Notes: a model not told the origin generated them from the letters alone. DNA of 64,000 nt from an uncultured Candidatus Rokubacteria bacterium (GCA_963826115.1 CAWGVS010000012.1:512001-576000), one strand, 5' to 3'; shown: positions 23,256-45,933, numbered from the stretch's first letter. Translations and numbers: made by a program.

Positions 23256-24398
23256 TCACGCCGGGGCGGGCGGCACTCCCAGGAGCGGGAAGACGAGCGC
23301 GCGGAGCTTCTGGACCTGGCGCTCGGCGAACTCCCGCGCGGGCCGGACCGCCTCCAGGGGCAAGGGCGGCAGCCCGTCCCACAGGGCGCGTCGGGGGCCG
23401 AGGTACGGGGCCGCCGCCGCGACGAACGCGGGCGGGAGCGCAGGCGGCAGCGTGACCCCGTTCATGAGCGCCCACGCCGCCGTCCACGCCCGGGCGACGT
23501 TGGCGAGGTCGTAGCCGCCGCCGCCGAGCGCGACCAGGCGCGGGGCGAGGCCGACGATGCGCTCGACGGCGGCCGCGAAGCCCTCGACCGACAGGGCGAG
23601 GTGCGTCAGCGGATCCGTCCGGTGCCCGTCGATGCCGAGCTGCGCGACGACGACGTCGGCCCCGAAGGCGCGCAAGACCGGCGGGACGACCGCGTCGAAG
23701 GCATCGAGGTACACCGCGTCGTCGGTGTAGGGATTGAGCGGGAGGTTCACCGCGTACCCCCGCCCGGCGCCCTCGCCGAGCTCCTCGACGGCGCCGGTCC
23801 CCGGGAAGAGCCGGTCGCCGCGCTCGTGCGTCGAGATGGTGAGCACGTCGGCGCTCCGGTAGAACGCCGCCTGCACCCCGTCGCCGTGGTGCGCGTCGAT
23901 GTCGACGTACGCCACGCGGAGCCCGTGGCGCCGGAGGGCCAGGATCGCCAGCACCGCGTCGTTCAGGTAGCAGAACCCCGACGCGCGGTCCGGCATCGCG
24001 TGGTGAAGCCCGCCGGCGAACGCGAACGCGCGCGTCACCTCGCCCCGCGCGACCAGCTCGGCCGCCAGCATCGAGCCGCCGCACGCGAGCGCGGAGGCCT
24101 CGTAGCAGCCGGGCCAGATCGGGTTGTCCCCTGGCCCGAGGCCGTAGCGGTAGGCGTGGGGCACCGGCTCGCCCGCGCCCGCGGCCCGCAGGACGTCGAG
24201 GTATTCCTCGGTGTGGAACTCCCGGAGCGCCGCCGCCGGCGCGGCGGCCGGCGGCCGGATCGTGAGGCCCGGGAGGCGCGTGAGCCCGTAGGCGTCCATG
24301 AGGGCGTACGTCAGGCCGAGCCGCTCCATCCGGAGGGGATGCTCGGGTCCGTAGTCGAAGCGCGTGTACGCGTCCGAGTGGACGAGGGCCGTCTTCAC
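23256..24398 (-). CDS. acuC: AcuC / histone-deacetylase family protein
   Basis: GGLHHA, SGFCY.ND, DIDAHHGDG, FPGTG, LGGGGY. Confidence 0.88.
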   Translation of the reverse strand: MKTALVHSDAYTRFDYGPEHPLRMERLGLTYALMDAYGLTRLPGLTIRPPAAAPAAALREFHTEEYLDVLRAAGAGEPVPHAYRYGLGPGDNPIWPGCYEASALACGGSMLAAELVARGEVTRAFAFAGGLHHAMPDRASGFCYLNDAVLAILALRRHGLRVAYVDIDAHHGDGVQAAFYRSADVLTISTHERGDRLFPGTGAVEELGEGAGRGYAVNLPLNPYTDDAVYLDAFDAVVPPVLRAFGADVVVAQLGIDGHRTDPLTHLALSVEGFAAAVERIVGLAPRLVALGGGGYDLANVARAWTAAWALMNGVTLPPALPPAFVAAAAPYLGPRRALWDGLPPLPLEAVRPAREFAERQVQKLRALVFPLLGVPPAPA

Positions 24399-24970
24399 CG
24401 CCGCACCCAGCGGCCGCTCCGGCCGCCCGACTTCTCGACGAGGCAGAGGTCCGTGAGCCGCATGCCGCGGTCGATCGCCTTCACCATGTCGTAGATGGCG
24501 AGCCCCGCCCCGGCCGCCGCCGTCAGCGCCTCCATCTCCACCCCGGTCTTGTCGACGGTGCGCACCGCCGTCTCGACGCGCACCGCGGACCGCGCGCCGT
24601 CGAGCACGAACCGCACGTCGATGCCCGTGAGCCGGAGGGGGTGACAGAGCGGGATCAGCTCGGCCGTCCGCTTCGCCGCCATGATCCCCGCGAGCCGCGC
24701 GACGCCGAGGACGTCCCCCTTGGCGATCTCGCCGCGGCGGATGGCCCGGAGGGTCGCGGGCCGGAGCCGGAGCGTGATCCGCGCGCGCGCCTCCCGCACG
24801 GTGTCCGGCTTCGCGGAGACGTCGACCATCCGCGCCTTGCCGCGGCGGTCCAGGTGGGTCAGGCCGGCCAGGCCGGCGGGGTCAGGCGGGCGGGGGCTCG
24901 CCGCGGCGCGTCGAGGCCGCGACGCGCCCCGACGACCGCGGACCCGCGTGCCCGCGGTCGCGCGGGGCAT
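24395..24970 (-). CDS. moaC: Cyclic pyranopterin monophosphate synthase
   Basis: LTHLD..GKARMVDVSAK, LIPLCHP, GVEMEAL, YDMVKA, KSGG; start position uncertain. Confidence 0.95.
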   Translation of the reverse strand: MPRATAGTRVRGRRGASRPRRAAASPRPPDPAGLAGLTHLDRRGKARMVDVSAKPDTVREARARITLRLRPATLRAIRRGEIAKGDVLGVARLAGIMAAKRTAELIPLCHPLRLTGIDVRFVLDGARSAVRVETAVRTVDKTGVEMEALTAAAGAGLAIYDMVKAIDRGMRLTDLCLVEKSGGRSGRWVRR

Positions 24971-24991
24971 GGGCCGAAGGAGGCGTCAGCC

Positions 24992-25228
24992 TCAGGCCGA
25001 CATCGAGGCGGCGGCCTGATTCTGCCGGATCAGGGTCTCCATGCGGTCCTTGCCGATGAGCTTCAGCTTCTTCAGCTCGCTCTCGCGCCACTGTTGCTCG
25101 GCCGAGAGAAACGGGCGGGCCTGGAGCTCGGCCAGCTCCTGCTCTTGCGCCTGATGCTCGGCGCGCAACCGCCGGAACTCGTCGTTGAGCTCGGTCAGGC
25201 GCTGGACGATGGCCTCGCGATCGGGCAT
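24992..25228 (-). CDS. DUF465 / YdcH-like small coiled-coil protein (78 aa)
   Basis: AAGGAGG RBS; EFRRLRAEH...LKKLKLIGKDRM. Confidence 0.82.
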   Translation of the reverse strand: MPDREAIVQRLTELNDEFRRLRAEHQAQEQELAELQARPFLSAEQQWRESELKKLKLIGKDRMETLIRQNQAAASMSA

Positions 25229-25267
25229 GTTCCCTCCTTCCACTGAGAAAACCAGGCGGTCACTGAG

Positions 25268-25306
25268 AAAACAAAACGGCCAGCGCCCGCGCGGGCCACT
25301 GGCCAT
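25268..25306 (-). terminator. Intrinsic terminator inside the 5' leader of the DUF465 gene
   Basis: AUGGCCAGUGGCCC-GCGC-GGGCGCUGGCCGU hairpin followed by UUUGUUUU, about 40 nt upstream of the start codon. Confidence 0.7.
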
Positions 25307-25385
25307 CTCAAGAATCGAATCCGGTGCTTGGCCGTCACGCACTCGGCCTCCCGTGAACGCCCCGGGGGTGGGCCTGCCGCGTTCA
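25307..25385 (-). ncRNA. Candidate structured cis-regulatory leader (riboswitch/attenuator-like)
   Basis: UGAACGC/GCGUUCA stem, GGCCG/CGGCC stem with loop GUGC complementary to downstream GCAC; lies between promoter and terminator; family not recognised. Confidence 0.45.
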
Positions 25386-25390
25386 GCCCC

Positions 25391-25420
25391 CTTGTAGCAG
25401 AGCGTTCCGCGCCGTGTCAA
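25391..25420 (-). promoter_or_regulatory. Sigma70-type promoter upstream of the leader
   Basis: TTGACA-18 bp-TACAAG with TG extension. Confidence 0.55.
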
Positions 25421-25436
25421 GCCGGACGCATCCCGA

Positions 25437-27908
25437 CTATGACGGACCGGGCGGCGCGGCCAGCACGCCGTGGAGGCGCGCGGCCAGCGCGTCCGGCGCG
25501 CTCGGCCAGCCGAGCCACGGCGCGCCGCGCGGGACGCCCGCCGGCGCGCCGCCCGGCGGGACGTCGACGTCGACGACGTAGAGCACGCGGAGCTCCGGCC
25601 GCGTCGCGCGGAGCCGGAGCGCGAGATCCGGCCCGGACAGCTGCGCGAGGTCGGCCGGCACGATGAGGAGGTCGATCGGGTCCTCGTGCCACTCGGCGAT
25701 GAAGAGCGCCTCGCCGCCGTTGGCGGCCTCCAGCACCGTGTGGCCCTGGTGGGCGAGGAAGCTCCCGATCCCCTGCCGCGTGCCCCGGTCGGCGTCCACG
25801 AGGAGAATGGTCGCTCCGCCCGTCGGCGCGTCCGGCCGCGCGCCGTCGAGGCACGGCAGGTAGACGTCGAGGGCGCTGCCACGGCCGGGCGCGCTGTCGA
25901 CCGTGACGAGCCCGTGGTGCTGCCGCACGATGCCGTATACCGTGGCGAGGCCGAGCCCCGTGCCCTGGCCCACCTCGCGCGTCGTGAAGAACGGCTCGAA
26001 CAGGTGGGCGCGCACCTCCGGGCTCATCCCCGCGCCGGTGTCCCGCACCGTCAACCGCACGTAGGTGCCGGGCACCGCGCCCGCGTGCTCGCGCGCGAAC
26101 GCCGCGTCAAGCTGGGCGTCGGCGGTCTCGACCGTGAGCCGGCCGCCCTCGGGCATCGCGGCGCGCGCGTTCAGCGCGAGGCTCAGCACCGCCTGGCGGA
26201 GCGGCGCCGGGTCGCCGCGCACCGGTCCGAGCGGCTCGGCAAGGGCGAGCACCACCTCCACCCGGTCGCCGGCGAGACGCCGGAGCGCCGGCTCGAGCTC
26301 GCGGACCAGGCCGTTCAGGTCGAGCCGCACGGGCTCGAACGCCTGGCGGCGGCTGAACGCGAGGAGCTGGCGCGTGAGCTGCGCCGCCCGCGCGGCCGCG
26401 CCGCGGATCTCCTCGGCGTCGTGGCGGAGCGGATCGTCCTCGGGGAGCTCCCGGCCCATGGCCTCGGCGTAGCCGAGGATGACGGCCAGCCGGTTGTTGA
26501 AGTCGTGGGCGATGCCGCCCGCGAGCCGCCCGATCGCCTCGGTCTTCTCGGAGCGCCGGAGGTCCGCCTCGAGGCGCCGGCGCTCGGTCACGTCGCGGAG
26601 GATCGAGAGGTGGCGGCCGGGCACGATGTCCGCCTTCGCCGCGTACTCGACCTCGCGGACCGTGCCGTCGGCGCGCCGCACCTGGAGGGCGCCCTCGCGC
26701 TCGCCGCGCTCGAGGACCTCGCGCCACGCGCGGCGGGCCTCGCGCGCCTGGCGCGGCGGGACGAACTCGAAGAGATCGCGCCCGACGAGCGCCGGCACCG
26801 GCAGGCCGAAGAGGGCGCTGGCGGCCGGGTTCGCGTCGCGGAAGCGCCCCGCCGCGTCGAGCACGACGAGCGCGTCGAGCGCCCGGTCGAAGACCGCCCG
26901 GAAGCGCGCCTGGCTCGCCTGCCGCGCCCGCTCCGCCCGGCGCCGCGCGGAGGTCACGACGCCCACGTAGAGGCCGGTGAGCGCGAAGGCGAGCAGCAGG
27001 AGCTGGAGGTCCGGCAGCCCGACGGCCGGCTCGGCCGCGCTGCGGACGGCCGCGACCACGCCGAGATTCAGGCCGAGCACCGCGAGGCTCGCCCCCGCGA
27101 GCCCCTGGCGGAGCGCGATCCACAGGAGCGGCAGGAAGCCGAGGTAGAGAAGCCGGACCTCGGTCGCGAGCGCCGAGGCGAACGGGATCCAGATGGCGAG
27201 CGCGAGGCTCGCCGCCTGCCCGAGCGCCTCGCCGACCGCGCGGGAGGTCCACCGGCGCCGCGGGCGGGCGCGCCGCCGCGCCGCCCGCGCGCGGCCGCCC
27301 CCGAGCCGCGCCGCCACGGCGTCGGTCAGCGGGATGCCGTGCACGAGGAGCGCGGGCGCGACGGTGACCGCCCCGAGCGCCTGGCCGATCCACCAGCTCA
27401 CGACGCCCGCCGGGTACATGTCCCACGACACGAGCCCGGTCCGCACGAGGAGCATCATCCCGGCCGCCGCGACCGGCAGGGGCTGGAGGAGCGCGACCCC
27501 GACGAGCCCGTTGACGTCGCGCAGGGTGAGGAGCCGGGGATCGGTCCGGAGCCCGTGGCGCAGGACGGCGGCGCCTGCCGCCGCCCCGGCCGCGAGGAGC
27601 ACGCCCCAGCGCGCGAAGGTCCGCACGTCCACCGGCAGAGGATCGAACCAGAGCCCGACCAGGACGGGACCGAGGACCAGGATCGGCGCGTAGCGGATCC
27701 CGCACGCCAGGAGCACGGCGAGGTTCAGCCCCGCCAGAAGGTGCCACGCGAGCCCCCGGAGCGAAGGAAAGACGAGGGCGGGGCCGGCGAGGCCGACGAC
27801 CCCGACGCCGTAGCCCGCCGTGACCGCGAGGACGCCGAGGCACGCGTGGGAGGTCGCGGCCAGGGCGCGCCGCCATCCCGCGGATCGGGTCGCCGCCTCG
27901 TCCACCAT
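25437..27908 (-). CDS. MASE1-PAS hybrid histidine kinase with degenerate receiver domain
   Basis: Multi-TM MASE1-like region, PAS, GGIAHDFNN H-box, LFEPFFTT/GTGLGL, C-terminal REC-like domain. Confidence 0.9.
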   Translation of the reverse strand: MVDEAATRSAGWRRALAATSHACLGVLAVTAGYGVGVVGLAGPALVFPSLRGLAWHLLAGLNLAVLLACGIRYAPILVLGPVLVGLWFDPLPVDVRTFARWGVLLAAGAAAGAAVLRHGLRTDPRLLTLRDVNGLVGVALLQPLPVAAAGMMLLVRTGLVSWDMYPAGVVSWWIGQALGAVTVAPALLVHGIPLTDAVAARLGGGRARAARRRARPRRRWTSRAVGEALGQAASLALAIWIPFASALATEVRLLYLGFLPLLWIALRQGLAGASLAVLGLNLGVVAAVRSAAEPAVGLPDLQLLLLAFALTGLYVGVVTSARRRAERARQASQARFRAVFDRALDALVVLDAAGRFRDANPAASALFGLPVPALVGRDLFEFVPPRQAREARRAWREVLERGEREGALQVRRADGTVREVEYAAKADIVPGRHLSILRDVTERRRLEADLRRSEKTEAIGRLAGGIAHDFNNRLAVILGYAEAMGRELPEDDPLRHDAEEIRGAAARAAQLTRQLLAFSRRQAFEPVRLDLNGLVRELEPALRRLAGDRVEVVLALAEPLGPVRGDPAPLRQAVLSLALNARAAMPEGGRLTVETADAQLDAAFAREHAGAVPGTYVRLTVRDTGAGMSPEVRAHLFEPFFTTREVGQGTGLGLATVYGIVRQHHGLVTVDSAPGRGSALDVYLPCLDGARPDAPTGGATILLVDADRGTRQGIGSFLAHQGHTVLEAANGGEALFIAEWHEDPIDLLIVPADLAQLSGPDLALRLRATRPELRVLYVVDVDVPPGGAPAGVPRGAPWLGWPSAPDALAARLHGVLAAPPGPS

Positions 27909-27953: not shown

Positions 27954-29053
27954 TCAGAACGGACCGGGCGGGCCGCGCCGGATCAGCTGGGCGGCCGTGG
28001 CCTTGAAGGTCACGTCGACGGGCACGCCCGGCGCGAGCGCGAGCGTCGCCACCGCCGGCCGCGTCACGAGCGCGGTCAGCGCCACGCCGCAATCGACGCC
28101 GACGCGCCAGAGGGGCCCGGTCGGCGTGACCCGGACGACGCGGCCCGCGAGACGGTTCTGGGCGCTCGTCACTCCGGAAGTCTCCGGCCGCGCGAGCGTC
28201 AGGTCCTCGGGCCGGAGCCCGACCAGCACCCGCTCGCCCGGATGGGCCGTCCCCGCGACGACCACCCGCGCCGGACCGACCTCGACCTCGACCACGCCGT
28301 CGCCCCGCGCGACGATCCGCCCCGGCAGGAGGTTCTCGACGCCGACGAAGCGCGCGACCGCCTCGCTGTCCGGCGCCCCGAAGACCCGCTCGGGCGGCCC
28401 GAGCTCGGCGAGTCGGCCCTCGAGCAGCACCGCGACGCGGTCGCCGAGCCGGAGCGCCTCGCCGCGGTCGTGCGTGACGAGGACGGTCGTGGTCCGTGCG
28501 TCGCCGAGGAGCCGTCCGAGGTCGTCGAGCAGCCCTTCGCGAGTGGGCGCGTCCAGCGCGGCGAAGGGCTCGTCGAGGAAGAGCACCTCCGGCTCGGCGG
28601 CGAAGGCCCGGGCCAAGCTCACGCGTTGGGCCTCCCCCCCTGACAGCCGGTCCACCGACCGGTCGGCCAGCGCGCGGACCCCGAGACGCTCGAGCCAGTC
28701 GAGCGCGCGCCGGTCGGCCGCCGGGCGGGCGACGCCACGCAGCCGGCACGCGAGGCGCGCGTTGTAACGGACCGAGCCCCGACAGAGCAGCGGCTCCTGG
28801 AAGACGCACGCCATCCGCCGGCGCCAGGCGAGGCGCTCGGCCTCGGTACAGGGAAGAGCGCCCTGGAGCCGTACCGTGCCGCGGGTCGGGTGCACGAGCA
28901 GCGCGAGCACGCGGAGCAACGTGGACTTCCCCGCGCCGTTCGGGCCGATCACGGCCAGCACCTCGCCGGGCTCGACCGCGAGGGCCGGCACCGCGAGGAC
29001 GCGCTGGCCCTCGTACTCGACCTCGACGTCGAGGGCCTCGAGGACCGGCGCGC

Positions 29054-29057
<4 letters not shown>
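27954..29057 (-). CDS. tupC: ABC ATP-binding protein with TOBE domains (tungstate TupC-like)
   Basis: GPNGAGKS, LSGGEAQRV, C-terminal TOBE (TFKATA); operon context. Confidence 0.75.
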
Positions 29058-30175
<1,118 letters not shown>

Positions 30176-30182
30176 GGGCGCC

Positions 30183-30842
30183 TCAGAGCCGGCCGAGACG
30201 GCTGGCCACCAGCACCACCGCGCAGGACAGGAGCGTCAGCGTGACGACCAGGACGCGCGCCTCCGCCGTCTCCCCCGTCGACACCGCCGAGTAGATGGCG
30301 AGTGGCACGGTGGTCGTGCGGCCGGGGATGTTGCCCGCGAGCATGAGCGTCGCGCCGAACTCGCCGAGCGCCCGCGCGAACGCGAGGACCAGGCCGGCGA
30401 CGATCCCGCGCCGCGCGAGGGGCAGCGTCACCTCGAGCGCCGTCCGCCACTCGGAGCGGCCGAGGACGAACGCGGCTCGCTCGAGGTCCGGGCTCACGCT
30501 CTCGATCGCCGCGCGGGCCGGGCGCACGAGCAGCGGGAGCGCCATCACCGCGGCCGCCACGACGGCCGCGTACCAGGTGAAGGGGAGGCTCCAGCCCGTG
30601 AGCGCGTAGAGGGGGCCGCCCAGCCAGCCCCGCCGGCCGAGGAGCACGATCAGGTAGTAGCCGGTGACCGTCGGCGGCAGCACGAGCGGCAGCATGACGA
30701 GGGCATCGAGGGCCTGGCGGCCCCGGAAGCGGCGCTTCGCGAGCAGGTACGCCAGCGGGACCCCGACCAGGGCGGCGGCGAGCGTCGCCAGCACCGACAC
30801 GCGGATCGACAGCCACAGCGCGCTGGTCGCGGCCTCCGACAT
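30183..30842 (-). CDS. modB: Molybdate ABC transporter permease
   Basis: LPLVLPPTVTGY, FARALGEFGAT, AGNIPG.T. Start may be 30845 or 30860; a TAGAGT -10 box overlaps the 30860 region. Confidence 0.92.
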   Translation of the reverse strand: MSEAATSALWLSIRVSVLATLAAALVGVPLAYLLAKRRFRGRQALDALVMLPLVLPPTVTGYYLIVLLGRRGWLGGPLYALTGWSLPFTWYAAVVAAAVMALPLLVRPARAAIESVSPDLERAAFVLGRSEWRTALEVTLPLARRGIVAGLVLAFARALGEFGATLMLAGNIPGRTTTVPLAIYSAVSTGETAEARVLVVTLTLLSCAVVLVASRLGRL

Positions 30843-30892
30843 CACGAGGGACTCTAGCATGCGCCGGCGGGCCGCCCCGCGGGCCGGCGACC

Positions 30893-31588
30893 CTAGACGC
30901 GGCCGCGCTGCTGGAGCCAGGTGAGCGCCCAGTTCACCAGGAACGTGAGCGTCAGGAGGAGCACGGACAGGGCGATCGCGACGTCGAAGTTCCCCTTGCC
31001 CGTCTCGAGCACGGTGGCGGTCGTCAGGACGCGCGTCTGGCCGCGGATGTTGCCGCCCACCATGAGCGAGGCGCCGACCTCGGAGATCACCGCGCCGAAG
31101 CCGGCCATCAGCGCGGCGAGGAGCGGGAGCCGCGCCTCCCGCATGAGGATGCCGAGAAGCTGGAGGCGCGAGGCGCCGAGCGCCGCGACCTGCAGGCGGA
31201 AGCGCGGCGGGATCTGCTGGACGGCGGCCAGCGTGAGTCCAGTCACGACCGGGAAGGCGATGACGAACTGCGCGACGACGATCGCGGTCGGCGTGTAGAG
31301 GAGCTCGAGGGCGCCGAGCGGGCCGCTCCGCCAGAGCAGCACCGAGACGAAGAGGCCCACGACGACCGGCGGGAGCCCCATCCCGGTGTTGACGAGGGCG
31401 ACGATGAACCCGCGCCCGGGGAATCGCACGAGGGCCAGGCCCGTGCCGAGCGGCATGCCGGCGACGAGCGACAGCGCGGTCGCCGCGCCCGAGACCTTCA
31501 GCGAGAGCCAGGTGACCCCGAGGAGCTCCGGGTCGGCCGTGCCGAGGAGCCGCGCCGCCTGGAGAAAGCCCTCGCCGATCAGCCCCAC
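30893..31588 (-). CDS. tupB: Tungstate ABC transporter permease
   Basis: NTGMGLPPVVVGL, ISEVGA.LMVGGNI..QTRVLTTA. Confidence 0.9.
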   Translation of the reverse strand: MGLIGEGFLQAARLLGTADPELLGVTWLSLKVSGAATALSLVAGMPLGTGLALVRFPGRGFIVALVNTGMGLPPVVVGLFVSVLLWRSGPLGALELLYTPTAIVVAQFVIAFPVVTGLTLAAVQQIPPRFRLQVAALGASRLQLLGILMREARLPLLAALMAGFGAVISEVGASLMVGGNIRGQTRVLTTATVLETGKGNFDVAIALSVLLLTLTFLVNWALTWLQQRGRV

Positions 31589-31604
31589 GCGGTCACCGGG
31601 GCCC

Positions 31605-32408
31605 TCACCGCGCGCCCGGCCCGGGTGGCTGGAAGCCCAGCCGCTGGAGGACGGCGCGACCCTCGGTCCCCGTCAGGAGCTCCACGAAGGCCCGGGCCAG
31701 GGCGGGCTGGCGCGAGCCCGCCACCACGGCCGCCGGGTAGACTACCGGCGGATAGGTCTCCTCGCTCGGCCGGAAGGCCTCGCGCACCCGTGCCCCGGCG
31801 GCTGGCAGATCGGTCGCGTAGACGAAGCCCGCGTCGACCTCACCCCGCGCCACGTACTCGAGGACCTGGCGGACGTTCTCGCCGAAGACCAGCTTCGGAC
31901 CCAGCCGGTCCCAGAGCCCGAGGGCCCGGAGGCTCTCCTGGGCGTACTGGCCGGCCGGCACGGTCCTCGGGTTCCCCAGCGCCACGCGGGTGACGCGCGG
32001 ATCGAGGAGATCGGACGGCGCGGTGAGGTCGCGTCCCGCGTCGGCCGGCGTGACGACCACCAGCACGTTGCGCGCGAACGCGCGCCGCGTGTCGCGGAGG
32101 ATCAGCCCCTTCTGCTCGAGGTCGTCCATCTGGCGCGTCGCCGCCGAGACGAACACGTCGATCGGCGCGCCGGCCTCGATCTGCTTCTGGAGGTCGCCGG
32201 ACGCGCCGAAGTTGTAGCGGAGCGTCACCCCGGACTGGCGCGCGGCAAAGCCGCGCCCCAGGGTCTCCACGGCCTCCTTCATCGAGATGGCGACGGAGAG
32301 CGTCAGCTCCTGGGCCGAGGCCGCCGCCGGTCCGCCGAGCGCCAGGAGCGCGGTCGCCGCGAGGGTCGCAAGTCCGCGCAGCCCGCCGCGGGGACGGCGC
32401 CGCCTCAT
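31605..32408 (-). CDS. modA: Molybdate ABC transporter substrate-binding protein
   Basis: Signal peptide; AISMK, FGASG.L.KQIE.GAP.DVF.SA, VPAGQYA, GFVYATD. Confidence 0.92.
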   Translation of the reverse strand: MRRRRPRGGLRGLATLAATALLALGGPAAASAQELTLSVAISMKEAVETLGRGFAARQSGVTLRYNFGASGDLQKQIEAGAPIDVFVSAATRQMDDLEQKGLILRDTRRAFARNVLVVVTPADAGRDLTAPSDLLDPRVTRVALGNPRTVPAGQYAQESLRALGLWDRLGPKLVFGENVRQVLEYVARGEVDAGFVYATDLPAAGARVREAFRPSEETYPPVVYPAAVVAGSRQPALARAFVELLTGTEGRAVLQRLGFQPPGPGAR

Positions 32409-33247
32409 TTCCCGAGGTCCTCTTCCCGCTGGCCCGCTACCGGGACGAAGAGCGCCTGGCCGTACTTGTCCACGCCGAACGTCCGGACCACGTCTTGGAT
32501 GGCGGGGGACACCATGAAGTCGGCGAAGGCCTTGCCGGCGGCCGCGTTCACTCGCGGGCCGTTCGCCGGGTTGACCTCCATGACGGAGTAGATGTTCAGG
32601 AGCGGCCGGTCCTTCTCCACCAGGATCGGCAGGTCGACACGCTTCTGGAACGCGAGGAACGTGCCGCGGTCGGTGAGCGTGTAGGCCCGGCGGTCGGTGG
32701 CGATGCCCAGCGTCGCCCCCATCCCCTGGCCGGACTCGATGTACCAGGGCGCCTTCGGCTCGACGCCCGCCTGCTTCCAGAGGGCCTGCTCGAGCAGGTG
32801 GGTGCCCGACTTGTCGCCCCGCGACACGAAGCGCGCCTCCCCGGCCGCGACGCGCCGGAGGGCCTCGGCCGCCGGCTGGCCCTTGATCCGCGCCGGGTCC
32901 TCGGCGGGGCCGATCACGACGAAGTCGTTGTACATGACGAGGCGGCGGTTCAGCATCTTGCCTTCCTCGACGTACTTCTTCTCGAGCGCGGGGGCGTGGG
33001 CGAGCGTGACGTCGGCCTCGCCGCGGGCCGCGAGCGCCAGGGCCTGGCCCGTGCCCACCGAGATCGTCTTGACCGAGTAGCCCGTGGCCTGCTCGAACAT
33101 CGGCACCAGGACGTCGAGGAGCCCCGAGTCCTGCGTGCTGGTCGTCGTCGACAGGATGAGCGTCCGGGAGGCCGGCGCCTGGGCGGCGGCGGCCCCCGCG
33201 GCCACCAGGATCGCCAGGGCGGCAAGGACGAGTCGGCGTCGCGTCAT
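32405..33247 (-). CDS. tupA: Tungstate ABC transporter substrate-binding protein
   Basis: TTTSTQDSGLL signature, VGTGQAL, FVSRGDKSGTH, GQGMG; AGGAGG RBS. Confidence 0.92.
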   Translation of the reverse strand: MTRRRLVLAALAILVAAGAAAAQAPASRTLILSTTTSTQDSGLLDVLVPMFEQATGYSVKTISVGTGQALALAARGEADVTLAHAPALEKKYVEEGKMLNRRLVMYNDFVVIGPAEDPARIKGQPAAEALRRVAAGEARFVSRGDKSGTHLLEQALWKQAGVEPKAPWYIESGQGMGATLGIATDRRAYTLTDRGTFLAFQKRVDLPILVEKDRPLLNIYSVMEVNPANGPRVNAAAGKAFADFMVSPAIQDVVRTFGVDKYGQALFVPVAGQREEDLGK

Positions 33248-33338
33248 GCGTGGCTTCCTCCTTGGGAGACCAGTATGACCGAGACCGGGCGGCCCGGGCA
33301 GGCCCGATCCGGGCCCGGCCGGGCCGCGCGGCCAGCCG

Positions 33339-34265
33339 TCAGGCCACCTCGCCGAGGACGCGCCCGGTCCGCGTCCAGTCGTACCCACCGAGCCGCTCCA
33401 GCCCGCGCCGGAACCGCTCCGAGCGGACGGCCTCGAGGAGGGTCTGGACGGGCGGCTCGAAGAACCGGGCCTTCGGGATCACGAGGTCGAACCGCTCCCG
33501 CGCGAGCGGCACGAAGCCGAGGCTCACGGCCCCCGCCACCGCGCGGGTGGCGATGCCGACGTCGGCCTCGCCCCGGACGATCCGGAGCGCCACCGCCCAG
33601 TGCGTCGACACCTCCTCGCGGTAGCCGACGACGCTCGCCTCCTCGATCCCGACGGCGGCGAGGGCCTGGTCGGTGAACGCGCGCGTCGCCGAGCCGGGCT
33701 GGCGGTTCACGAACCGGAGGCCGCGCCGGGCGAGGTCCGGCACGCCCGCGAGCTTGCGCGGATTGCCCGTCCAGACCAGGAGCCCGAGCTCCCGAGCGAA
33801 GGCGTGGACGAGCACGGCCGGGTGACCCGCCAGCCCGCGGGTGACGGGCGAGAGGTCGGGATCCCCGGCGGCGGGCTCGACGAGGGCACACGCCGCCACG
33901 TCGGCCCGCCCCTGCCCGAGGGCGGTCAGCCCGCCCAGCCGCCCGACGGTCGCGACGAAGAGGAGCGGGTGGCCGGCCTGGGCGCGGAGCGCATCGGGGA
34001 GGATCGCGAGCGCCGGGTCGTCGCTGCCCGCGAGGAAGAGATTGCCCGACGGGAGCGCCGGACCGGCCGCCGGCTCCCCCTGACTCCGGGCGCGCCCGCG
34101 CGCGCTCGTCTCGATCCACTCGTCGAGCAGCTGGACCGGAAAGAGCCACTTCCCCGTGACGCGGCTCGCGGGAATGCCACCGCGCTGGGCGAGGAGATAC
34201 ACCGAGCGGGGATTCAGCCGGAGGTAGCGGGCCGCCTCGGCCACCGTGAGGAAGCGTGGCTCCAT
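33339..34265 (-). CDS. Excisionase-type HTH + periplasmic-binding-protein-fold regulator (putative Mo/W-responsive)
   Basis: LTVAEAARYL....RSVY..A..G.IPA.RVTGKWLF; then AGSDD, RELGL, FVNRQPGSATR, ERFDL. Confidence 0.85.
   Translation of the reverse strand: MEPRFLTVAEAARYLRLNPRSVYLLAQRGGIPASRVTGKWLFPVQLLDEWIETSARGRARSQGEPAAGPALPSGNLFLAGSDDPALAILPDALRAQAGHPLLFVATVGRLGGLTALGQGRADVAACALVEPAAGDPDLSPVTRGLAGHPAVLVHAFARELGLLVWTGNPRKLAGVPDLARRGLRFVNRQPGSATRAFTDQALAAVGIEEASVVGYREEVSTHWAVALRIVRGEADVGIATRAVAGAVSLGFVPLARERFDLVIPKARFFEPPVQTLLEAVRSERFRRGLERLGGYDWTRTGRVLGEVA

Positions 34266-45845: not shown

Positions 45846-45933
<88 letters not shown>

Follow-up and report, generated by a model that had tools for sequence, protein, structure and literature searches.

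What is a strong transcription terminator doing directly in front of a gene, behind a promoter that appears to be the gene's own? The question is raised by a short region of a 64,000-nucleotide stretch of DNA (the window) from an uncultured Candidatus Rokubacteria bacterium. The Rokubacteria are abundant uncultured bacteria of soil and groundwater, and to our knowledge no member of their phylum has been cultured and no regulatory RNA has been described from it. On the minus strand of the window, a predicted leader of ~117 nt, with its own promoter and a strong terminator, lies directly before a DUF465 gene (Table 1). A preliminary description, made from the sequence of the window, read it as a riboswitch-like leader or a small RNA upstream of DUF465, moaC and acuC. 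Every motif that it gave can be read at the position named, and some of them, the promoter and terminator included, are conserved in relatives. The way in which it thought the RNA might switch is a different matter, and a putative translation start buried in the leader suggests another kind of control.

The leader and its genes

The DUF465 product scores 26.5 bits against PF04325, for which the cut-off is 25, and its orthologues across the order are 62-68% identical. It is followed, co-directionally and in tight packing, by moaC and a gene of the histone-deacetylase family; downstream of the deacetylase gene come tmk, holB, and then a PSP1 gene.

The conserved promoter is of the extended sigma-70 type, TTGACA-N18-(TG)nTACAAG. 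This pattern occurs in 45 of 46 distinct genomic upstream regions, and the -35 hexamer has the same position there and in the metagenomic leaders. The -10 region TCTGCTACAAG is invariant within the genus, and the form TGnTAnAAn is kept in other lineages. The terminator consists of a 27-nt hairpin, whose 11-pair, G+C-rich stem is bulged, followed by UUUUGUUUU, which is the make-up of an intrinsic terminator. The DUF465 ribosome-binding site (RBS) begins about 20 nt past the U tract, and this arrangement is conserved; the preliminary description had also seen a strong terminator ahead of the RBS, and 64 leaders carry one. A simple consensus scan of positions 24000-26500 found no promoter and no terminator. 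It missed both because its rules require a -10 ending in T and an unbulged stem; the -10 here ends in G and the terminator stem has a bulge, so both fall outside what the scanner accepts.

Since the terminator hairpin occurs once in the genome, a repeated element or a common terminator sequence was rejected as an explanation. The two copies of GUUUUCUCAGUG beyond it lie 20 nt apart. The repeat is absent from relatives and therefore looks like a recent local duplication, the spacer being longer in this genome only; 19 bases of this region are missing from a near relative's DNA contig.

Table 1. Features of the leader and its surroundings, all on the minus strand (window coordinates)
Feature	Position	Details	Basis or remark
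Mo/W-type uptake cluster	27954-34265		
Hybrid histidine-kinase (sensor kinase) gene	25437-27908	Gene end at 25437; MASE1, PAS, HisKA, HATPase, receiver	Between the ABC/TOBE gene and the leader; directly before the leader promoter
-35 hexamer	25420-25415	TTGACA	Sequence reading
Spacer between -35 and -10	TG at 25399-25398	N18, ending TG-C	
Extended -10	25391..25399	TG-C-TACAAG; TACAAG at 25396-25391	Sequence reading
Predicted RNA start	about 25385-25383		Inferred from spacing
Conserved 5' hairpin	25337..25382	Stems P1-P3	RNAalifold and single-sequence folds agree
P1	25382-25378 with 25341-25337	ACGCG with UGCGU	
P2	25374-25371 with 25348-25345	GGCC with GGCC	
P3	25366-25363 with 25353-25350	CCCG with CGGG	
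SD-like and start-like motif	25340..25351	GGAGG 25351-25347, 4-nt spacer, GUG 25342-25340	Inside the 3' strand of the hairpin
Variable linker	25305..25336	Carries CGGCC, GCAC, ACGGCCA	Poorly conserved
Intrinsic terminator	25268..25304	Hairpin 25304-25278; U tract UUUUGUUUU 25276-25268	Sequence reading
Direct repeat, two copies	25272-25261 and 25252-25241	GUUUUCUCAGUG, 12 nt	Between terminator and RBS
DUF465 RBS	25237-25233	GGAGG	Sequence reading
DUF465 coding sequence	25228 (ATG) to 24992 (stop)	78 aa	Pfam PF04325
moaC	24970-24395		Pfam MoaC, 179 bits
Histone-deacetylase-family gene	24398-23256		Pfam Hist_deacetyl, 281.8 bits
tRNA gene	45849-45932		Rfam, 57.7 bits

Distribution among relatives

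The leader is widely kept among the relatives of the window's genome, the hosts being Candidatus Rokubacteria/Methylomirabilota genomes assembled from metagenomes. With a 241-nt region as the query, a sequence search finds it in 18 of 20 other genomes in the family, namely in 13 of 14 further genomes of the genus (72-79% identity) and in 5 of the 6 remaining genera; none of 17 genomes of the largest sister family has a match. A covariance model recovers it in 19 of the family's 20 genomes; its three matches in the rest of the order are weak (27-bit) and, upon inspection, all lie directly upstream of a DUF465 orthologue and have the same kind of promoter. A phylum-wide sample has matches in 18 of 151 genomes, the strong ones all within the family, and three other families have none (0/18, 0/12, and 0/7); a weak, partial match in one genome, G083, supports no claim. 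Each genome has a single copy, and other cofactor or transport genes have none in front of them. The element is always directly upstream of, and co-oriented with, the DUF465-moaC-deacetylase genes, and the promoter, hairpin, and terminator remain beside DUF465 where the histidine kinase or some other gene has been inserted upstream.

DUF465 loci were also gathered by protein, 39 of them genomic and 80, out of 469, metagenomic. Among the 80 metagenomic loci, 7 were skipped for having less than 200 nt upstream, 7 were promoterless by the pattern, and 9 were duplicates; a truncated leader (L082) was left out of the counts. There are 102 distinct leaders with a TTGACA-N16-18-TAnAAn promoter. The terminator is present in 64 of them, its stem ending 23-62 nt (median 33) ahead of the DUF465 ATG; the other 38 lack it and have the same promoter 48-169 nt ahead of the ATG. 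The promoter is found in terminatorless leaders as well, and the short distance between terminator and ATG leaves no room for another, so the promoter must be that of DUF465 itself. This means that the module of hairpin and terminator lies in the 5' untranslated region of DUF465.

The loci include several other leader types. In four terminatorless leaders (L063, L069, L070, and L148), a Shine-Dalgarno (SD) and AUG motif stands about 165 nt before the DUF465 ATG and begins frames with conserved starts (MGVPEELI, MGEPEELI, MGVTEELK, and MGVPEDVI); judged by these starts, the lineage may have a genuine small gene at this place, upstream of DUF465. In a divergent group (L077-L081), the terminator sequence is the same and the 5' element is another one (CACCCG ... 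GGACGGGG); one member, L081, has an upstream frame that ends in AUGA and overlaps the DUF465 start. Many leaders in the range L116-L163 are terminatorless, 48-88 nt long, and carry a conserved GGGGCAGGGUCC motif and CCUCGCAAGGAGGUCCGCAUG. Finally, five leaders (L059, L122, L123, L127, and L146) combine a promoter TTGACA ... TAGCAT/TAACAT and a hairpin GACCGGAGG(U/A)UCCGGUGAC with a different terminator, CGCCAGCAUCG..GAUGCUGGCG plus a U tract, before the same DUF465 gene.

Comparison with catalogued RNA families returned nothing for the leader. At gathering thresholds, the 4227 models of Rfam 15 have a single match in the whole window, the tRNA gene of Table 1. Positions 25100-25550 (451 bases), searched at E values of up to 10, give four chance matches, all in the DUF465 coding sequence, and 18 related loci give none. 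The model of the molybdenum cofactor (Moco) riboswitch, RF01055, matches neither the window (E values of up to 10) nor the 18 loci nor the genome as a whole (6.24 Mb, 99% complete); the control genomes, E. coli and Thermus, were detected. A known RNA family was therefore rejected, in line with the preliminary description, which had recognized no riboswitch class. The element is real, conserved, and uncatalogued, and we class it as a new family of leaders that would attenuate transcription.

The 5' hairpin

The support that relatives give to the three stems of the hairpin can be put in numbers, all from an alignment of 47 sequences that was fitted to the model, leans toward structure, and contains mostly pairs that hardly vary. 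In that model-fitted alignment, 93.9% of the cells are paired by pair counts, and two-sided changes occur in 8 of 24 pairs compared to 4.5±1.1 in shuffles, of which 1 in 500 reached 8. The covariation score in the same fitted alignment is 0.121, against 0.080 in shuffles and at most 0.037 with slid partners. Compensated variants of P2 can be read by eye from lineage to lineage (GACC/GGUC, GGAC/GUCC, and GAGCC/GGCUC). Of the two signs in relatives that the preliminary description had named, conservation is plain across the family, and covariation support for P1-P3 is modest in this model-fitted alignment.

The pairing itself differs from that first drawn. The 7-bp stem UGAACGC (25385-25379) with GCGUUCA (25360-25354) can be formed in the window, but its perfect form is unconserved; relatives read GCGUCGA, and what they conserve instead is the ACGCG/UGCGU pairing of P1. 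Nor is the hairpin constant in size, since in some lineages it is reduced to a 3-5-bp stem with a 6-nt loop. The GAAC after P2 is retained in many lineages, and the loop varies freely inside the window's own genus. The sequence of the hairpin is conserved beyond the needs of pairing. Unusual thermodynamic stability was considered and rejected, as the folding energies match those of shuffled sequences: a 167-nt stretch of the window is ordinary (z = -0.76, with 45 of 200 shuffles folding as well), and the 5' hairpin in 55 leaders does no better than shuffles (mean z -0.51).

The terminator and the search for an antiterminator

The preliminary description had proposed the parts of an alternative fold. 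A second hairpin, GGCCG (25348-25344) with CGGCC (25334-25330), is present in the window, as are the motifs of a pseudoknot, GUGC (25342-25339) with GCAC (25327-25324), and the exact complementarity of ACGGCCA (25335-25329) to UGGCCGU (25282-25276) in the terminator. All three prove to be window-specific. The second hairpin lies partly in the variable linker, which also holds GCAC, and this linker varies in both sequence and length, with indels that are not multiples of three. The alternative fold has a striking energy in the window, where the duplex of the linker with the 3' arm of the terminator reaches -20.5 kcal/mol (z = -2.8), but it is unconserved: compared with shuffles, the duplex energies of 55 leaders have a mean z of +0.24. 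The 5' part of these leaders fares no better with the 5' arm of the terminator (mean z -0.16) or with the 3' arm (-0.06). A conserved antiterminator, formed by hairpin or linker against the terminator, was thus not found in the 55 leaders, any conserved alternative pairing with the terminator was rejected on these duplex energies, and the proposed switch anatomy is not supported.

The terminator itself is kept in 45 of 55 leaders when the SD/start region of the hairpin is blocked in silico. The sequence of its lower stem, GCCAG(C/U)G/CGCUGGC, is conserved, and covariation of the top pair is seen in 11 cells.

One could consider the RNA to be a stand-alone, trans-acting small RNA, with DUF465 expressed only by leakage past the small RNA's terminator. 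A strong conserved promoter and a strong terminator do bound an RNA of ~117 nt, the minimum-energy fold contains the terminator in 48 of 55 leaders with no RNA alternative, and the conservation of sequence exceeds what pairing requires. The position of the element tells against it, however, for it is always co-oriented with and immediately before DUF465, where another promoter has no room, and in 38 lineages the same promoter drives short leaders free of the module and is therefore DUF465's own. In addition, no second copy is present in the genome, and the conserved single-stranded candidate is GGAGG, which resembles an RBS and is unlike an anti-SD seed. A small RNA of this kind seems unlikely to us.

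RNA libraries contribute one observation. A 152-nt contig, with 2 differences in 146 nt, covers 25222-25367 and so holds the hairpin, the terminator, and the beginning of the coding sequence in one piece. This single contig is compatible with read-through; its depth is low, and DNA carry-over in the library is possible. The remaining RNA-library contigs over the coding sequence, from four runs, have 84-95% identity with the window, and other organisms are their probable source.

A start-like motif in the hairpin

The piece shared across otherwise differing lineages is a small hairpin with GGGAGG in its loop and 3' strand, and the most conserved core within it is GGAGG followed, after 4-5 nt, by GUG or AUG. 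This SD-like and start-like motif is found in 55 of 64 terminator-bearing leaders, with GUG in 52 and AUG in 3; the 9 without it include all 5 of one divergent group. The distance from GGAGG to the start is 4-5 nt in 52 of the 55, and the same spacing is the most frequent one at the real DUF465 start site (43 of 64). Since the two spacings agree, the motif looks like a translation start. GUG and AUG alternate among lineages with the UG invariant, the U of the triplet forms a G-U wobble in 41 of 42 cells, C never taking its place, and AUG is the rule in related leaders that have no terminator. As far as conserved bases can indicate function, the core of the hairpin resembles a translation start more than it does a ligand pocket.

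What would be translated from it is less constant. The start-like codon lies 20-45 nt (median 35) before the terminator. In 43 of 55 leaders, the frame it opens continues into the terminator, and in 10 others its stop codon falls no more than 27 nt away from it. PMC4824070 shows quantitatively, with an E. coli reporter, that ribosomes repress a terminator if the stop codon lies less than about 27 nt before it. Of the same 55 leaders, 46 have a +1 frame that is open into the terminator, compared to the 43 of the motif frame, which leaves no frame-specific signal. The terminator is read in all three frames, at about 15:17:7; 12 motif frames end ahead of it, the shortest frame has 1 codon and the longest more than 40, and a few leaders have start-stop or 2-4-codon frames. 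Neither a conserved leader peptide nor control codons were found among these leaders, whose frames and lengths vary. Judged by this variation, the open frame is without visible selection and is not a conserved gene. A small protein encoded through the terminator was rejected as well, given the three frames and the indels of close relatives, which are not multiples of three. Since the three reading frames are mixed, coding does not explain why the terminator sequence is conserved.

That conservation could be explained by a protein, possibly the DUF465 product, that binds the hairpin and/or the lower terminator stem and causes antitermination. The lower stem GCCAGCG/CGCUGGC is fixed across lineages that otherwise differ, and the upper stem covaries; coding cannot account for the former, the hairpin is likewise conserved beyond pairing, and an RNA antiterminator is absent. 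On the other hand, there is no candidate protein. The many GGA motifs prompted the idea of a CsrA/RsmA sponge, which is excluded because CsrA is absent: PF02599 has no match in the genome and was detected in the control genomes. DUF465 has no known RNA-binding activity, and its profile has only insignificant matches to solved structures (E 0.19 and 0.82). Binding by a protein would also leave unexplained why AUG and GUG alternate at a fixed distance from GGAGG. We regard protein-dependent antitermination as doubtful.

Gene neighborhood and molybdenum

The genes around the leader bring molybdenum to mind. Among the 39 genomic loci, moaC is 3' of DUF465 in 38, and an ABC ATPase with a TOBE domain is upstream of the leader in 34; the leader usually comes just after a molybdate/tungstate uptake cluster. 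The preliminary description had mentioned a link to molybdenum cofactor through moaC as a possibility. The link is still one of context, but with the uptake cluster on one side and moaC on the other in nearly all loci, it is a stronger one than was described at first.

In the window, the uptake cluster encodes a regulator with HTH_17 and PBP_like domains, PBP_like_2 (TupA-like) and SBP_bac_11 (ModA-like) proteins, two permeases, an ABC ATPase, and the ABC ATPase with a TOBE domain. In most relatives, the ABC/TOBE gene stops just before the promoter, in the place where the window has its hybrid sensor kinase; two loci (L050 and L051) also have kinase similarity there.

The literature offers little on the gene that is controlled. 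Nothing on the function of DUF465 (YdcH) was found, an RNA leader is absent from the titles and abstract openings of papers that mention DUF465, and no full text dealing with Rokubacteria together with a riboswitch was found.

In this setting, a metabolite riboswitch of a new class has an obvious appeal: the 5' hairpin would bind a ligand, possibly one related to the molybdenum or tungsten cofactor, and thereby set the efficiency of the terminator. The order of promoter, structured RNA, terminator, and RBS fits, as do the moaC gene downstream and the ABC/TOBE ATPase upstream at the frequencies just given, together with the ModA-like and TupA-like proteins, permeases, and HTH/PBP regulator upstream in the window. 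No known family matches, the canonical Moco riboswitch is absent from the genome, and some internal-loop bases, such as the GAAC after P2, are conserved in many lineages. Against this, neither hairpin nor linker has a conserved alternative pairing with the terminator that could serve as an expression platform. The bases conserved in all lineages are the SD-like and start-like ones, the hairpin shrinks in some lineages, and the loop with GAAC is free to vary within the window's genus. A single copy per genome, with none before other cofactor or transport genes, also tells against a riboswitch, as does the lack of a terminator in 38 of 102 leaders of the same family of loci. Such a riboswitch is improbable on this evidence, and if a ligand is involved after all, the leader would become an orphan riboswitch candidate. 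Equally improbable is the broader idea that the hairpin is a sensor, either as a new Mo/W-cofactor riboswitch class or as a dedicated gauge of free ribosomes that sets the transcription of an operon in which moaC, for cofactor synthesis, is joined to the replication genes tmk and holB.

The neighborhood also suggests the simplest possibility, which is that nothing is regulated. The terminator hairpin would then belong to the upstream operon, DUF465 would receive constant read-through, and the 5' hairpin would do no more than stabilize the RNA. In most loci, the ABC/TOBE gene does end only a few tens of bases before the -35 hexamer with no terminator between, and nothing in the RNA looks like a switch. 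Yet the promoter, hairpin, and terminator travel with DUF465 past insertions upstream, a strong conserved promoter before an unconditional strong terminator would be wasteful, and the SD and start motif is kept over wide divergence. We think it very unlikely that the leader is without regulatory function.

Proposed ribosome-dependent attenuation

The reading that we prefer, tentatively and as something short of probable, is that the leader is a cis-acting transcription attenuator of the DUF465-moaC-deacetylase operon in which a translating ribosome allows read-through, as in pyrBI. Transcription would begin about 7 nt past the conserved extended -10, and the first ~50 nt would fold as the three-stem hairpin, to be followed by the variable linker of ~30 nt and the strong intrinsic terminator. 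Only transcripts that pass the terminator would carry the DUF465 RBS, and it is this dependence that gives the leader the anatomy of an attenuator. A ribosome initiating at the GUG or AUG of the hairpin would run into the 5' arm of the terminator and block formation of the terminator hairpin. The 5' hairpin would set how often the start is used, in effect gating it, and read-through, hence expression of the operon, would follow the translational capacity of the cell.

The anatomy of the leader, its conservation, and its fixed position are established by the comparisons above. That the ribosome is the agent of read-through is drawn by analogy and is the most likely choice; it is the simplest agent given the lack of an RNA antiterminator and the start-like motif just upstream. 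The lack of a conserved antiterminator RNA likewise agrees better with a ribosome that occludes the terminator than with an RNA switch, and the leader as a whole looks more like an attenuator than a metabolite-sensing riboswitch, with ribosome-dependent read-through as the leading mechanism. Timing is a real difficulty for it. According to PMC4824070, it is rare for a ribosome to catch up in the first 100 nt with a polymerase that does not pause, and a terminator ~35 nt past the start would be hard to reach in time without a pause.

If occlusion by a ribosome is true, the leader would be a natural attenuator, outside the enterobacteria, that responds to translational capacity, and a compact part suited to tests in a heterologous host. 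In any case, it is a single-copy, conserved regulatory RNA with sequence-predicted ends, placed on a conserved gene between Mo/W uptake genes and moaC, and adding its covariance model to RNA-family databases is warranted so that such genomes are annotated correctly.

Comparison with known systems

One system to compare is the Moco riboswitch, a leader before molybdenum-cofactor genes, near molybdate transport, and often with a terminator. The structured part here is ~50 nt, in contrast to the 135 positions of the Moco model, which has no match to it. The leader-peptide attenuators of trp and his share with the present leader the order of promoter, short frame, terminator, and structural genes; they differ in having a conserved peptide, control codons, and 2:3 antiterminator pairing, none of which is seen here. 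In LoaP-type leaders, a NusG paralogue binds a hairpin that stands before an intrinsic terminator. Such leaders share with the present one a conserved hairpin close to the promoter and an intrinsic terminator behind it, although the type of operon differs.

The E. coli ampC attenuator has an RBS and a very short frame before its leader terminator, and a tie of read-through to ribosome abundance has been proposed for it. A few leaders here, with their start-stop or 2-4-codon frames, are similar. The difference is one of distance, since a start 20-45 nt before the terminator is too far away for an initiating ribosome to cover it.

The proposed mechanism resembles that of E. coli pyrBI, where a start in the leader (pyrL) opens a frame of 44 codons through an intrinsic terminator just before the structural gene. 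The pyrL frame is defined and is coupled to UTP-sensitive pausing, whereas the frame and its length are unconserved here; the start here is also buried in a conserved hairpin, and similarity in sequence is absent. According to PMC5021804 and PMC4824070, pyrBI requires no antiterminator RNA, as the ribosome itself blocks the hairpin. In PMC5021804, tight coupling across the pyrL leader peptide stops the pyrBI terminator from forming. A putative start upstream of the terminator, a feature of pyrBI-type leaders, can be read in the sequence of 55 of the 64 terminator-bearing leaders of the DUF465 operon.
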